NCBI GenBank assembly: GCA_045629765.1
Contig: JAZQRW010000058.1
Location: 1 to 35,751, forward strand
Direction of reading: 5' to 3'
DNA length: 35,751 bases
Origin: Eubacteriales bacterium
Lineage (GTDB): Bacteria; Bacillota; Clostridia; Oscillospirales; CAG-272
Position 1 is the stretch's first letter. Every line of letters begins with the position of its first letter. Below, piece after piece: positions 5,164-11,849 of this stretch. Made by a program: the position numbers and the translations under genes. A model generated the notes under the pieces. That model saw nothing but the letters and a program-made list of their open reading frames with translations. It was not told the origin of the DNA and did not search any database.

Positions 5164-6054
5164 ATGAAAGCAAAAAGAGGTTTATTTAGTTACGTAAAAG
5201 AGGTTGTTTATCTATTCTTACATATAGTATTATTCTATTTGTTGCCGATTAAGATTGAGTTGAACGAAGCGCCTAAAATTGTGGTTATTCAATTCTTCCT
5301 TACTTTCATCTTCGGTCTTATGATGGGCGGATTTATTCGCAAGACAGAAAAGTTCTGGTATCCTATCGTTGTTACAGGCGTATATTTGCCTAGTGTATTC
5401 GTTTACTTTGGCAAGGAGAATTTGCTCTTCTGCCTTTGGATTTTTATTGCCTCATTCCTTGGTGTAATATTCGGTCAGCTTGCGCTTAAGCCTAAGAATA
5501 CAAGCCCTGATAATAGCCAGAAGAAGAATAAGGCTAATGAAAAGAAAGCAAAGAAGCAGGCTGAGAGTGACATAGCTGCTCTTAAGGCGCTTGATAGTCT
5601 TAACGAGATGAAGAAGGTTGGAAATACAATTCCGGCTGAATTTGATATAACGGATAACGATATTGTACCGGATGTTGAAGTTTCGGTTAAAGGTGGTTTC
5701 TTCAAGAGATTTACCGCAAGCTTGAAGCGCTCAATGGACGAAAATAAAGCAAAAAAAAACGAAAAAAGAGCAAAAAAACTGAAACCAAATAAAGGTGTGG
5801 TTGAAGGCTATAGCAATAAAGAGGTAAAAGCGCAAGGACTCAAGGAAGAGTTCGGTAAGGATTATAAGAAACCACAGGGTAACACTACCGGTACAGCGAG
5901 CACTCCTCAAAGCAGTGACGACGGTCAGAAGGCTTTCTTCACTGACGAGCATCAGCGTCAAGGCGCATTCCTTTTTAACCACAAGGTTGAGGGTAATAAC
6001 GACAACAATGTGGAATTAAAATCAAGCGTGCAGAAGGATGAAAAAGATAATTAA
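5164..6054 (+). CDS. Hypothetical membrane protein, ~4 N-terminal TM helices plus long Lys-rich hydrophilic tail
   Basis: Hydrophobic first ~105 aa and a charged low-complexity remainder. GAGGTG RBS. Confidence 0.75.
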   Translation: MKAKRGLFSYVKEVVYLFLHIVLFYLLPIKIELNEAPKIVVIQFFLTFIFGLMMGGFIRKTEKFWYPIVVTGVYLPSVFVYFGKENLLFCLWIFIASFLGVIFGQLALKPKNTSPDNSQKKNKANEKKAKKQAESDIAALKALDSLNEMKKVGNTIPAEFDITDNDIVPDVEVSVKGGFFKRFTASLKRSMDENKAKKNEKRAKKLKPNKGVVEGYSNKEVKAQGLKEEFGKDYKKPQGNTTGTASTPQSSDDGQKAFFTDEHQRQGAFLFNHKVEGNNDNNVELKSSVQKDEKDN

Positions 6055-7281: not shown

Positions 7282-7435
7282 GTTAAATTCCTCCGGATGA
7301 TAATGCAAAATAATATGAAAATTGGTAAAATTAGTAAATGTTTTATTAAATTACATTTACCCAACGTGGCAATAAATGGGGAAATAATCTGTAAAATTCG
7401 TGACATAAGTTGTAAAATAGTATAGAATATAAACT

Positions 7436-7463
7436 ATAATACAAAACTTATAAACATTGTCAA
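7436..7463 (-). promoter_or_regulatory. Possible internal promoter for parB
   Basis: Minus strand TTGACA-16bp-TATTAT in the AT-rich parA-parB gap. Confidence 0.45.
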
Positions 7464-7532
7464 CAATTTAATGTGGAAAAGTCAAATAAATATTAAACAC
7501 AAAAATCTATATGTAATATTCTGGTTAAAACA

Positions 7533-8300
7533 TCAAATGCGCATCATTAACTCTTTAACAACAGCAGCATATTCAAGCGCACCCTTGCAATAGGGATCGT
7601 GATAACAGATAGGTTCTCCGTACGATGGCGCCTCCGAAAGGCGAACAGTGCGTGAAATGGGGACTTTGAATAGGATATCGGAGTAGTATTTTCTAAGTTC
7701 GGATACTACCTGGGTGGTCAAAGTGAGTCTACCATTGTACATCGTGAGTAAAATACCAACTATCTGTAGATTTGGGTTGTGTATTTGTCTAATCTTTTTG
7801 ACTGTATTTAAGAGCTGCGACATACCCTCAAGTGAGTAAAACTCGCATTGCATTGGGATTACCACGCCATCGGAAGATGAGAGTGCCTTTACGGTTAGCA
7901 TTCCGAGCGATGGTGGGCAGTCGATGAATATGTAATCATACTGATCTCTAAGAGAATCAAGGCCGATTTTGGTAAAGTTTTGATCTTCTTCAAGCTCGTA
8001 AAGCTCAAGCTCTGCGCCTGCAAGGTCAATGTTTGCAGGAATAACGCTTAAGTTCTTGAATTTTGTCTTGATTATCGCTTCTTCAATAGAGATATTTCCT
8101 ATGATAACGTCGTAAATGGTCTTTTTTAACTTGGATTTTTGAATACCAAGACCGCTCGTTGCATTGCCCTGAGGGTCTAAATCCACTAAAAGCACTTTTT
8201 TGTTGTGTTTATTCGCGATTTGTGCCGCGATATTTACACATGATGTGGTTTTTCCAACACCGCCTTTTTGGTTTGAAAATGAAACAATTTTTGCCGGCAT
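7533..8300 (-). CDS. parA: Chromosome partitioning ATPase ParA/Soj
   Basis: NQKGGVGKTT deviant Walker A, DLDPQGNAT, IDCPPSLG and RLSEAPSYG. Confidence 0.97.
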   Translation of the reverse strand: MPAKIVSFSNQKGGVGKTTSCVNIAAQIANKHNKKVLLVDLDPQGNATSGLGIQKSKLKKTIYDVIIGNISIEEAIIKTKFKNLSVIPANIDLAGAELELYELEEDQNFTKIGLDSLRDQYDYIFIDCPPSLGMLTVKALSSSDGVVIPMQCEFYSLEGMSQLLNTVKKIRQIHNPNLQIVGILLTMYNGRLTLTTQVVSELRKYYSDILFKVPISRTVRLSEAPSYGEPICYHDPYCKGALEYAAVVKELMMRI

Positions 8301-8333
8301 AATCTTCTCCTAGCTTTTTACATATACACATAT

Positions 8334-8362
8334 ATTATAGCATTATCGGCTAAATAAGTCAA
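8334..8362 (-). promoter_or_regulatory. SigA promoter of parA
   Basis: Minus strand TTGACT-17bp-TATAAT with TG extended -10. Confidence 0.75.
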
Positions 8363-8433
8363 TATGTGTATGATATTTTGCAATAAAATAGTGAGAACAG
8401 ACACATAAGCATTGTATAAGTGAAAAAACATAA

Positions 8434-8449
8434 TGTTTCACGTGAAACA
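8434..8449. promoter_or_regulatory. parS: parS centromere site 1
   Basis: Perfect palindrome TGTTTCACGTGAAACA (extends to 20 bp, 8432-8451), matching the universal chromosomal parS consensus. Confidence 0.95.
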
Positions 8450-8657
8450 TTGCGAAATAGGGGTGTAGATAAACAAATGTAGTCTGAAAAAGATGCTAGA
8501 AAGTATAGACAAACACAAATATCCAAAAATAAGGAGCAAAAGCCACTGATAAGGCGTGAAATTGTACAAGCAAAGCTAAACAAGAGAGATGAAAACGTAA
8601 ATAAGGCGCTAAAACTCAAAATTAAGGTATAATAAGCGCGACTAGATACGAAACAAT

Positions 8658-8805
8658 GCAATAGAGATTAAAAGAATGTAAACAGTGTTGACACAAGGCG
8701 CGTAACGGGTACAGACTACACGCAAAACGACGCAATAGAGATTAAAAGAATGTAAAAAGTGTTGACACAAAGCACGTAATGGGTACAGACTACACACAAA
8801 ACGAC
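8658..8805. repeat. 74-bp tandem duplication (2 copies, 5 mismatches)
   Basis: GCAATAGAGATTAAAAGAATGTAAA...CAAAACGAC at 8658 and 8732. Confidence 0.92.
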
Positions 8806-8867
8806 GCAAAACGAGGTGAAAATAGCACGAAAAGATGCAAAACGAGGTGAAAATAGCACGAAAAGAT
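8806..8867. repeat. 31-bp perfect tandem duplication
   Basis: GCAAAACGAGGTGAAAATAGCACGAAAAGAT at 8806 and 8837. Confidence 0.92.
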
Positions 8868-9110
8868 GCGAATCGGGTGGGAGAAATGTAAAATATGGAG
8901 ATCTAGCTTTCGAATAGTGATTTGACTAACACAAATAAGGGTGTTGCAATTTAAATCGAACAGCCCGCTGCGTGTGCGCTTTGTAAGCAAGCCTTCCTTT
9001 GCTTTTATGAAAAAAGGTATAGATGATTTTTGAAGACTGCTTCGCTATGAAGCATAAGGTTAGGTGCGATACCTATTTATAACGTTTGAACCTTGCAAAA
9101 TAAGTCAACA

Positions 9111-9172
9111 AATGCTCCAAAATGCTTATTTGAAAGAAACTAATGCTCTGAAAAGCTTATTTGCAAGAAACA
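9111..9172. repeat. 31-bp degenerate tandem duplication (26/31 identical)
   Basis: AATGCTCCAAAATGCTTATTTGAAAGAAACT versus AATGCTCTGAAAAGCTTATTTGCAAGAAACA. Confidence 0.8.
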
Positions 9173-9332
9173 AATGGTGTGAAAAACGCTTAAAATACTG
9201 TGATAATTTAGAAAATCCCAAAAATATTGCAACAAATCGTGGTAAATCGCTTTAAAATCTCCGTCAAACGCTAAAAAACGCAACTTAGCTGTCTTAAACC
9301 TTTTTGGATGTACATAAGTTTTGTAAAACAAA

Positions 9333-9348
9333 TGTTTCACGTGAAACA
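9333..9348. promoter_or_regulatory. parS: parS centromere site 2
   Basis: Perfect palindrome TGTTTCACGTGAAACA (extends to 22 bp, 9330-9351). Confidence 0.95.
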
Positions 9349-9724
9349 TTTTGATGTATTTTTGAATAATTTTGGGCATAGAAGCACCATGCGTATCCTA
9401 GATGCGAAGGACATACGACATACGGTAGAGAACGTTAATGTTGGATACAGAATATAAACAGTCCTGTTTGGGGCGAAAAAAGTACAAAACTAATAGCAAA
9501 TACGTAATAAAACAGCCTTTAACTGCAGAAAATAGGTAAAATCAAGCAAAAAATCAAGTAAAATGTGTGAAAAACAGACAAAAGCAGCAAAACCGTACGG
9601 GAATGGACAAGAAATAAACGAGTAAAGAAACTGATTGTGATTAAGCGATTTGAAATCTGTGTGCCTGGAACTATGTAAAAATAAAGAAATTAGCAACTTT
9701 GCTAACGAAAATTACGCATCCACA

Positions 9725-9766
9725 AGCTTTTTAGAGGATGTTTATAGCTTTTTAGAGGATGTTTAT
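9725..9766. repeat. 21-bp perfect tandem duplication
   Basis: AGCTTTTTAGAGGATGTTTAT at 9725 and 9746. Confidence 0.9.
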
Positions 9767-9838
9767 ACAACCTTACAACTTTGGGATTGATAAAAACGGA
9801 CTTAGTTTGGGGTCTGATTGGCAAAATAAGCGACTAAA

Positions 9839-9931
9839 TTTGGTTAAATTGATTATAAAATGGTAGGATTTTGGTTGAATTGCTTAAAAAATAGTAGGAT
9901 TTTGCTTGAATTGGTTAAAAAAATGGTATAT
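9839..9931. repeat. 31-bp degenerate tandem repeat, 3 copies
   Basis: Units of form TTTG(G/C)TT(A/G)AATTGnTTA..AAAT.GTA start at 9839, 9870 and 9901. Confidence 0.85.
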
Positions 9932-10803
9932 TTCTTGGAAAAAAGTGCCTTAAACGGCATAATGATTAAGAAAATGCTTTATAAACTGCTCTTTTGAAGT
10001 GGTTTCCTCATGCATTGAGTGAAATATAGGCTTGTTTTGCATTGACCTTGAGGTTAGACTGCGTTTGCTGATAAGAAAATATAATTACCAAATATTACCA
10101 ATTATTAACAGCTTTTCTTGCTCCTTGTTTTTTTGAAGGCTTTTTTGCGGCTTTTTTCGTTTTTTGTGCTTTTTTACATTTTTTGCTTGGCTTTTATTAA
10201 AAAAACGAATATTTTGATTGTAAATTGTACGAACAGACGAAAAATATTGTTGTATTTTATGAAGGTTTTGACACATAATTGCTGATATTTTGCAACATCA
10301 AATTCGCTTGTGGTAAATATTACGAATAATAAATATGCAAATATCATGAATAAATATACATGAATTGTGTTATTTAAGGTGCTTTAAGTAGCATTTTGGA
10401 TGCGTGTAGCTTGTTTACTCGCGCGAGCATTTGTGGTCGTGAAAGGTTGAAATTTAATGAATATTTTATACTGTCAGCACGAGTGATGACGTAAGTGGTA
10501 GGGTATAAATAAGGAAAAAAACACGTAAGAATAATGACATTAGAAGCATCTGCAAAAGAAAATCTTATGGCGGAAAAAATGTGCGTATAGTGTGCAATCG
10601 AGGTGTGATTGAAGAGTTTCACAAAGGTGTTATCCCCGGGGGAAGTGTCGCTAAAAACGTTTTTTGAAGCACGTCGCGGACGCATTTAATAAGGGGCTGT
10701 GTTGTTAAAGTCGCTTTTTACTAGGATTAAACTAGGATTAAGTCTATGTTTTGTGATTGAATACCTGCGTTTTGCTCTAAAGCTGATAGTATGGAAAATA
10801 TTA

Positions 10804-10832
10804 TTGACATTTACAAGAAAAAGAAGTATAAT
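10804..10832 (+). promoter_or_regulatory. Perfect-consensus SigA promoter
   Basis: TTGACA-17bp-TATAAT, about 370 bp upstream of the histidine phosphatase start. Confidence 0.75.
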
Positions 10833-11204
10833 AAGATATAGTTTTTTACGGTATATCAATAAAATTTTATGATCTAAAAATAAATACAACTGACTCTATC
10901 ACCCAACCAAGTGTCTTTTAAAGACAATTGTTTGGTTTTAAAAGCGATTTTAGCGGATTGTCGGTCTTTTTGTTTTTTTGTATTGAGCGCTTGATATAAA
11001 AACAGGGAGTTAAGCGGTGCACTCAAAAACTCTGCAAGTTTATAATGAATTTGTATTCATGTCTTGAGTCGCTGTAAGACGCATTTATCGCTCTTGTGTA
11101 CAGTGAATTGAATATGCACTATTTTATTCATTTTTAGGTTGGGTTGTGTTTATTGTGATTAAAAGAAAGCTTTTGAATTTAAAATGAATAGTGAGGATAG
11201 GAAA

Positions 11205-11849
11205 ATGTCAAAAACAACCCTTTATTTAGTTAGACACGGGCAGAGCATTGGTAATTCTTTGAATAGAATGCTTGGGCACACCGACCTTGATTTAACGGAG
11301 CTAGGGTACAAGCAGGCAGAAATGACGGCTAATGCGCTTCGTGACGTTAACTTTGCTGCTATTTATTCCTCCGATTTGCTACGCGCTAAAAATACCGCGC
11401 AGGCGAGCGCGACGCTACATAATCTTGACGTTATCACCGACGAAGGCTTGCGTGAAATTCATCTTGGTAAGTGGGAGGGGGCATACAAGAGTCAACTCGA
11501 TAAAGAGGATTTAGACCTGATTTTGAACGGCTGGCACAAGCAGTACGGAGAATTCCGTTGTCCCGGCGGAGAGGCTGTGTACGACGCCACTATGCGCGTG
11601 TACGTGGCACTTGAAGAAATCGCAAGAAAGCACGAGGGACAGACTGTTATGGCGACACTCCACGCCGGCGTAATTCGTGGATTTTGGGGTGTGATTTCGG
11701 GGATTCCTAAAGAAAAATGGGCTACTGAAACTGTTTTCCCTAGTAATTCGTCATATTCAATAATAGAGTATGACGGTGAGAAATTTACCCCTGTTTCGTA
11801 CTCTAACGATGAACACATGGGAGAGTTCGTCACCAGGATTAAGATGTGA
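11205..11849 (+). CDS. Histidine phosphatase family protein (phosphoglycerate mutase/CobC-like)
   Basis: LYLVRHGQS, YSSDLLRA, LREIHLGKWEG, PGGE and HAGVIR. GAGGA RBS favours ATG 11205 over 11184. Confidence 0.9.
   Translation: MSKTTLYLVRHGQSIGNSLNRMLGHTDLDLTELGYKQAEMTANALRDVNFAAIYSSDLLRAKNTAQASATLHNLDVITDEGLREIHLGKWEGAYKSQLDKEDLDLILNGWHKQYGEFRCPGGEAVYDATMRVYVALEEIARKHEGQTVMATLHAGVIRGFWGVISGIPKEKWATETVFPSNSSYSIIEYDGEKFTPVSYSNDEHMGEFVTRIKM

Follow-up and report, generated by a model that had tools for sequence, protein, structure and literature searches.

The window analyzed here is a whole contig of 35,751 nucleotides (JAZQRW010000058.1; C58 in our numbering) from the assembly GCA_045629765.1 of a Eubacteriales bacterium (Clostridia, Oscillospirales, CAG-272), and our subject is a long gene-free block that lies in it upstream of parA. 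In the window we found the C-terminal end of gyrA, RNase J, parB, parA, the gap that holds the block, a gene of the His_Phos_1 family, dnaJ-dnaK-grpE-hrcA, rny, and mnmG, in this order (Table 1). The ParB translation contains a GERRYRA stretch, presumably the ParB motif of that name. A preliminary description, made from the sequence, had placed a non-coding block at 8363..10800 and had listed in it two perfect parS sites and six tandem repeats. These limits agree with the promoter-like sites found at both edges; the parS sites lie at 8434 and 9333, and Tandem Repeats Finder (TRF) returned all six repeats, with starts that differ by at most 18 bp.

Table 1. Features of the block and its neighbors, in window coordinates
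Feature	Position	Strand	Evidence or sequence
parB, 306 amino acids	6388..7308	-	Pfam ParB_N and HTH_ParB, E-values 9.6e-33 and 3e-36
parA/soj, 255 amino acids	7533..8300	-	Pfam AAA_31 (1.2e-67), CbiA
Promoter-like site for parA, TTGACT-17-TATAAT with TG	8334..8362	-	Consensus scan 11/12; pattern match only
Zone of helically phased A/T tracts, predicted curved DNA	8341..10750	.	Local 10.3-10.6 bp power high throughout
parS-1, perfect 16-bp palindrome	8434..8449	.	TGTTTCACGTGAAACA
74-bp tandem repeat, 2.3 copies, 88% match	8640..8809	+	TRF score 270; family D1
31-bp tandem repeat, 2.4 copies, 93% match, three A4 tracts per unit	8795..8869	+	TRF score 129; family D5
31-bp tandem repeat, 2.5 copies, 83% match, unrelated to the other 31-mers	9107..9185	+	TRF
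parS-2, perfect 16-bp palindrome	9333..9348	.	TGTTTCACGTGAAACA
21-bp tandem repeat, 2 perfect copies	9725..9767	+	TRF
31-bp tandem repeat, 2.9 copies, 86% match	9839..9928	+	TRF
10-bp tandem repeat, 2.4 copies	10084..10107	+	TRF score 41
T-tract array, period 11 or 19 bp	10129..10186	+	TRF
Promoter-like site at the right-hand limit of the block, TTGACA-17-TATAAT	10804..10832	+	Perfect consensus 12/12; pattern match only
His_Phos_1 (phosphoglycerate-mutase-like) gene	11184..11849	+	Pfam 1.1e-49; syntenic in relatives

The source genome (G000) measures 1.84 Mb in 229 contigs, with 86.8% completeness and 6.84% estimated contamination, and the genomes compared were metagenome-assembled throughout. 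Counting loci from two public collections of uncultured Clostridia and Eubacteriales metagenome-assembled genomes, mostly from the hindgut of sheep, deer, yak, and goat, we used a set of 103 non-redundant spacers from the same uncultured Clostridia genus (102 besides this one; 79 complete). Orthologues of parA were present at 57-87% identity in 56 of the 60 other genomes of the genus, and the order parA-spacer-His_Phos_1 is kept, so that His_Phos_1 bounds the spacer across the genus. Among the genomes and metagenome contigs searched, none carried a ParA above 86% identity.

The gap between parA and His_Phos_1 (8301-11183; 2883 bp) contains no open reading frame (ORF) of at least 110 amino acids. 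It is the longest ORF-free stretch of the genome except for one of 2.8 kb on contig C31, which we take to be rRNA. The block is AT-rich (31-37% GC) and origin-proximal, as might be expected of an ordinary element that had escaped recognition, such as oriC, decayed genes, a large non-coding RNA, or a mobile-element remnant. Decayed genes were excluded: none of 24 stop-to-stop frames of at least 45 amino acids in the gap had a Pfam match above the cut-off (best E-value, 0.012), the longest ORF of the block (103 amino acids) had no homologue, and three-base periodicity was at noise level (0.3-1.25, compared to 2.2-5.2 in the flanking genes). A non-coding RNA was excluded by Rfam, which gave zero matches at the gathering threshold in the window and zero even at E ≤ 1 within 8200-11300, and a plasmid or phage origin was excluded by a blastn search of the block against plasmids and phages, which returned no match. 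We also excluded oriC, since the 2883 bp contain a single DnaA box (≤1 mismatch), which is the background rate, and a cluster of six boxes lies beside dnaA on contig C152. An ordinary element of any of these kinds is therefore barely credible, and the non-coding character given in the preliminary description was borne out.

The two parS sites lie within a shared, identical copy of 20 bp and match TGTTNCACGTGNAACA perfectly, compared to a chance expectation of 0.20 per window at ≤3 mismatches; they are the sole matches with at most one mismatch in the genome. In five of five relatives checked, every parS match of the genome fell inside this spacer. The complete spacers (n = 79) held no parS in 3 cases, one in 12, two in 28, three in 26, four in 8, and five in 2. 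Adjacent parS sites tend to be spaced by multiples of 10.0-10.2 bp; R is 0.23-0.26, with p ~1e-3 when one period is considered and marginal significance once the 31 periods scanned are allowed for. The parS locus is origin-proximal: three relatives (G047, G060, and G075) have dnaA at a distance of 14-17 kb from parA, and in the source genome, where dnaA is on other contigs, gyrA shares the window with the block. ScpA was also found in the genome. With canonical parS, adjacent parA and parB, and an origin-proximal position, the block is, to judge by its sequence, a centromere of the chromosomal ParABS kind.

Helically phased A/T tracts and tandem repeats

We measured helical phasing as the Fourier power of AA/TT, with local values from 210-bp windows and with 1-kb smoothing where stated. 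The block gave a peak at 10.5 bp with a power of 16.7, compared to 4.6 ± 1.7 for dinucleotide shuffles, none of 200 of which reached it in the 10-11.5 bp band; over periods of 2.5-40 bp, the largest global maximum among 100 shuffles was 19.9. Ranked by 10.5-bp AA/TT power, the top four of 2524 equal-length windows of the genome all overlap the block. In 210-bp windows, power averaged 9.63 across the block (n = 38), compared to 3.72 across the remaining ORF-free DNA (n = 480) and 2.78 across coding sequence (n = 22526), and the best 1-kb-smoothed power was 12.2 in the block, compared to 6.85 elsewhere in the genome. Helical periodicity, which the preliminary description had proposed from the repeat periods, thus stands far above both shuffled and other intergenic DNA.

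The signal comes from runs of A or T of ~5 bp flanked by G or C, with CAAAAA, AAAAAC, and AAAAAG among the enriched words, and these tracts occur at 8.0 per 210 bp in the block, compared to 2.7 genome-wide. Because such tracts recur once per helical turn, the DNA of the block is predicted to be intrinsically curved. A rough vector sum, in which each A/T tract bends the DNA by 18 degrees, gave a predicted net bend of ~97 degrees per 210 bp in the block; the genome mean is 33 degrees and the 99th percentile is 101 degrees.

Besides the six repeats of the preliminary description, TRF returned the T-tract array (Table 1) and weak arrays with periods of 7, 9, 10, 11, 12, and 14 bp. Repeat copies are imperfect (83-93% identity), the 21-mer alone being perfect, and the three 31-bp units are mutually no more similar than shuffled sequence. 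Repeats with a TRF score of at least 30 make up 23% of the block, and tandem repeats make up 8% of the spacers taken together. The block is not a homogeneous satellite, as less than a quarter of it lies in repeats and its six-plus arrays are mutually unrelated, nor an iteron-type plasmid centromere, given two to three copies per repeat, unrelated units, and no plasmid similarity. Two DNA sequencing runs, from one study, carry 0.10 and 0.06 of the block's words, in short contigs of 90-99% likeness. None of the read-derived contigs spans any tandem repeat, the bins at 9547-10692 were without cover, and many of the pieces were parS-only and came from other organisms.

The preliminary description had seen duplications that all preserve helical phase and had taken them as a sign of selection. 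Across the spacers of relatives, repeat periods do cluster, with 51 of 99 lying within 1 bp of a multiple of 10.5, compared to 24% under a uniform null, itself a crude one (p = 6e-9). The commonest periods are 20-22, 31-32, 41-43, and 60-63 bp, and a Rayleigh scan peaks at 10.25 bp. This much of the claim stood, but about half of the relatives' repeats are out of phase. The rest of the source genome makes a poor control: 35 of its 109 periods come within 1 bp of such a multiple, but 82 are divisible by 3 and mark coding repeats. The enrichment is consistent with the proposed selection, but slippage between phased A-tracts fits equally well without it.

We considered a neutral, self-propagating satellite, in which A-tract slippage grows the spacer and the periodicity is a mutational by-product. 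Several observations suit such a satellite: repeats are frequent, their periods cluster at ~21, 31, 42, and 62 bp, spacer length is highly variable and sometimes short, and most of the signal in this window sits in repeats. However, windows without any tandem repeat stay periodic across the spacers (mean power 7.58, n = 1493), and no other ORF-free DNA of the genome behaves in this way. The phase of the tracts relative to parS, described below, adds to the case against it.

Conservation across the genus and registration on the parS dyad

Among the complete spacers of the genus, the shortest has 201 bp and the longest 5371 bp; the median length is 1296 bp. The two longest, L039 (5371 bp) and L053 (5083 bp), contain minus-strand ORFs of at least 110 amino acids, so that inserted genes, and not curved spacer, may account for some of their length. 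Of 5253 spacer pairs, just 334 have any blastn match in common, mostly over ~100-200 bp adjoining parA, and a DNA search of the block against 40 relatives matched nothing but the parS sites. The periodicity, in contrast to the sequence, is shared: the first 32 spacers of the genus all peak at 9.75-10.75 bp, with a mean power of 7.4 at 10.25 bp, compared to 1.8 for flanking coding DNA. Over the 102 other spacers of the full set, the A-tract periodicity is likewise 10-10.75 bp. Since the spacers are unalignable between species, the shape signal is not merely inherited sequence identity.

Smoothed power exceeded 7 at 35 of 41 loci of the genus (median 14.2). Of 40 loci that belong to the order but to other genera and families, 8 exceeded this value (median 6.1). 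The shape signal is conserved and lineage-specific, and the sequence is not conserved. The preliminary description had suggested selection on DNA shape rather than on sequence and had proposed a look among relatives for long, sequence-divergent, phase-conserved spacers at parA; the spacers there are sequence-divergent and share the periodicity, and the suggestion is supported by the periodicity of all 32 spacers, the rarity of matching pairs, the periodic repeat-free windows, and the registration on parS. We also observed weakly raised periodicity upstream of parA at three loci from other genera of the family or order (L079, L082, and L088; smoothed maxima 8.5, 9.3, and 10.2), which may be an incipient or residual form of the same feature.

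We aligned the flanks of 227 parS sites on the center of the palindrome (the dyad) and found that AA/TT frequency oscillates between ~0.20 and 0.42, about twofold, with a 10.2-bp period that fades by ~300 bp. The maxima, at 15-16, 26-27, 36, 45, 56-57, 66, 76-77, 87, and 97 bp from the dyad, fit 5.1 + 10.2k. The dyad-registered amplitude was 0.076 at 10-110 bp, 0.040 at 110-210 bp, and 0.015 at 210-310 bp, with none beyond 310 bp; 200 trials with random sites in the same spacers averaged 0.010 and never exceeded 0.023. With one parS per similarity cluster (n = 56), the amplitude was 0.085. Periodic power itself was 8.6-9.5 within 500 bp of parS, 6.8 at 500-800 bp, and ~5 beyond 800 bp, over a baseline of 3.3. 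We did not observe the pattern around parS sites of other genera, where the amplitude was 0.016 for 42 sites and 0.011 for 85 sites.

AA and TT oscillate in phase and without a 20.4-bp component, and G and C are in antiphase, which rules out decayed palindromic copies of parS. Arrays of ghost parS were rejected as the source of the phasing on the word counts as well: the half-site word GTGAAA occurs 286 times, compared to 221 expected, and A5 words dominate. A neutral satellite fares poorly here too, as the tracts keep their phase relative to parS on either side and in every class of site, and the power drops with distance from parS. Furthermore, bacterial deletion bias should remove kilobases of useless DNA. 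We consider that account distinctly unlikely.

The divergent promoters of parA and His_Phos_1 suggest another source of curvature, namely, upstream regulatory DNA that is UP-like or sensitive to supercoiling or temperature. The Clostridium plc promoter is an example of a promoter with curved DNA upstream. Promoter-like sites do stand at both block edges, and curved upstream DNA is, according to the available text of PMC6301789, common at bacterial promoters. However, the tract zone spans kilobases, not tens of bases, and it is registered on parS. The registration is equal for distal sites and for flanks that face away from parA: in the four flank classes (proximal or distal site, facing toward or away from parA), the amplitude was 0.068-0.096 with the same offset. 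Since all four classes share amplitude and offset, we rejected a promoter artifact as the cause of the registration, and regulatory curvature as the reason for the block seems improbable to us.

A strong gyrase wrapping site, or a topological insulator near the origin, could also carry such a signal, as gyrase-wrapped DNA has 10.5-bp periodic preferences and gyrA lies in the same window. The zone is, however, far longer than the ~130-bp gyrase wrap, and gyrase gives no reason for registration on the parS dyad. Among the functions that the preliminary description had put forward (a ParB/SMC platform, a gyrase site, or a ParB spreading zone), this registration favors one linked to ParB over a gyrase site, which we hold to be very improbable.

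At the genus level, and as a statistical property, the pattern is that of nucleosome-like positioning: AA/TT recurs at ~10.2 bp at half-integer turns, with G/C in antiphase, about a dyad. The phased tracts might accordingly guide wrapping or positioning by an architectural protein that is not ParB (HU or a lineage-specific nucleoid protein); this protein would form a nucleosome-like particle centered on parS, with ParB as a bystander or partner. One HU gene is present, in keeping with this idea, but HU is universal and the signal is confined to this genus. Moreover, no histone-fold gene (PF00808) was found in the 86.8%-complete source genome, in a search that covered histone folds, and the pattern has the ParB site as its dyad. 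Wrapping by another protein is thus unlikely, if still worth keeping in mind.

Neighboring features of the window

The perfect-consensus promoter-like site at the right-hand edge of the block lies ~350 nt 5' of the His_Phos_1 gene (10804-11183). The leader of this gene folds somewhat more stably than its shuffles do (z -2.13) and contains a hairpin followed by a T-run, with no Rfam match; it may be an unrecognized leader or attenuator. On the other side of parA, the 224-bp gap between parA and parB (7309-7532) contains a promoter-like TTGACA-17-ATTATA, so parB may have its own promoter instead of being translationally coupled to parA.

In the source genome, dnaA is split over two contig ends (C98:4-459 and C152:7-393), and the two pieces need not belong together because of the estimated contamination. 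Immediately downstream of the dnaA fragment on C152, at ~939-1440, DnaA boxes are more densely clustered than anywhere else in the genome (6 boxes with ≤1 mismatch within 500 bp); this cluster is likely oriC.

Two further genes of the window contain short tandem repeats. A 296-amino-acid protein without a Pfam match, encoded at 5164-6054, has a hydrophobic N-terminal half and a Lys-rich tail, and this tail derives partly from an A-rich 21-bp tandem repeat (5738-5778) that is periodic at 10-11 bp. The gene for an HTH_3 protein (1518-2108) has in-frame tandem repeats of 18/36 bp and 15 bp at 1890-1997, which encode a stretch rich in Ala, Pro, Val, and Glu.

DNA shape as a possible part of the centromere

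Taking these observations together, we give about even chances to the reading that the block is the single centromere region of the chromosome, with curved flanks selected for their shape, and that this shape aids the ParB complex and SMC loading. Tentatively, and with somewhat less than even confidence, we also propose a centromere of two layers, in which a specific ParB site is joined by ~300-500 bp on each side of sequence-free, shape-coded DNA locked to the dyad. This second layer would set the DNA path and the assembly of ParB and SMC, and the flanks would turn over in the manner of a eukaryotic centromere satellite, changing fast in sequence and in length and gaining in-phase duplications, with the shape preserved.

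The orientation of the curve relative to parS may be predicted from its phase. Under the nucleosomal rule, AA/TT steps sit at half-integer turns from the dyad, and the minor grooves at these positions face inward. Since AA/TT around parS follows the same rule, the major groove at the parS center is predicted to face the concave side of the curve. ParB-parS structures place the helix-turn-helix contacts ~5 bp from the dyad, which would put these contacts on the convex side. A period of 10.1-10.5 bp does not fix the handedness of the curve because A-tract DNA is itself overwound.

We reasoned that, with its flanks already bent, parS could sit at the tip of a DNA loop or plectoneme and turn the face contacted by ParB outward. 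After loading at parS, ParB-CTP clamps would move out along two arms that lie side by side, and clamps on adjacent arms could then bridge and condense the DNA and pass to SMC-ScpAB, a route that would be efficient despite just one to five clustered parS. The spacer itself would turn over by local duplication and decay, during which duplications of whole helical turns arise or survive. As far as their available text goes, intrinsic curvature pins plectonemes at their tips (PMC6301789), and supercoiling draws DNA arms close to each other and reduces the ParB concentration at which condensation occurs (PMC11602141). The accessible part of PMC11602141 also reports that single ParB dimers do not pin plectonemes.

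Several observations weigh against a shape-selected, ParB-assisting centromere. The relatives are kin species, so that counts across the genus overstate independence. Ten of the 79 complete spacers are only 201-348 bp long, and a long spacer is therefore dispensable; parS number and spacer length are uncorrelated (rho 0.16, p 0.16). In this block, repeat-free windows have a mean power of 4.99 (n = 8), compared to 12.4 for windows with repeats. Phase coherence on the kilobase scale is not significant here, as 61 of 300 permutations of ~100-bp segments reach the observed power, and it is significant (p ≤ 0.05) in 11 of 45 long spacers of the genus. Because segment permutation is insignificant, what is kept is local curvature over ~100-300 bp and not one kilobase-wide phase. 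The registration, too, is statistical and not strict: of 438 flanks, 55.7% deviate from the consensus phase by no more than 60 degrees in either direction, compared to 33% expected. In the window itself, three of four flanks are in the consensus phase and one is opposite, with modest power (2.7-6.7), and the strongest periodicity lies 170-770 bp from parS-2. Finally, beyond the presence of parS, we infer the involvement of ParB and SMC from sequence.

How does the block compare to known centromeres? Livny et al. reportedly surveyed chromosomal ParABS centromeres with clustered parS sites in 2007. In Corynebacterium glutamicum, by the available text of PMC7083940, canonical 16-bp parS sites likewise lie close together by parAB and near the origin. 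Unlike in such centromeres, all sites here fall in one gene-free spacer of 0.2-5.4 kb whose flanks bear a dyad-registered curvature code. DNA geometry (a U-shape, curvature, or helical phasing) also matters at the plasmid centromeres R1 parC/ParR, TP228 parH, and F sopC, as described in the accessible portions of PMC2241845 and PMC3130281. In those centromeres, to the extent of the same portions, the repeat is the protein-binding motif, whereas the repeats of the block are unrelated in sequence, and what recurs periodically in it is a generic A/T tract, distinct from the specific site that such tracts surround.

The same signal is linked to curvature in genome-wide A-tract periodicity of prokaryotes (the available text of PMC3372288, PMC3940949, and PMC3431218), which according to these sources is diffuse and usually ~11 bp; here, it is confined to a single locus in one genus, stands ~2.6-fold above other ORF-free DNA, and is tied to parS. 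Plectoneme pinning encoded by curvature offers a positional code for supercoils and a physical basis for the mechanism put forward above, which is a proposal; the accessible text of PMC6301789 demonstrates pinning for promoters and synthetic sequences, not for centromeres. We found no description of curved or phased flanks at a chromosomal parS in the available text of the literature searched, outside which most subscription journals lie.

In logic, the block also resembles eukaryotic DNA that is kept for its shape over its sequence. This reference to eukaryotes is to the budding-yeast CDEII element and nucleosome-positioning sequences, which are kept in composition and bendability rather than in sequence; the positioning pattern has AA/TT at ~10.2 bp, with G/C in antiphase, about a dyad. 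Unlike CDEII, the block is bacterial, its dyad is the ParB site, and no histone-fold gene was found in a genome that is 86.8% complete.

Current models of the ParB partition complex assume that clamps slide from parS along DNA that has no features of its own. That this genus keeps a curvature code around its sole parS sites while the sequence turns over suggests that DNA shape can be a selected part of a bacterial centromere. If true, this would be the first bacterial case of centromere flanks selected for DNA shape, and a bacterial parallel to the shape-conserved, sequence-divergent centromere DNA of eukaryotes. It raises the testable question of whether pre-bent or plectoneme-pinning DNA helps ParB condensation and SMC loading, and dyad-registered AA/TT phasing provides a bioinformatic signature that can be searched for in other lineages.

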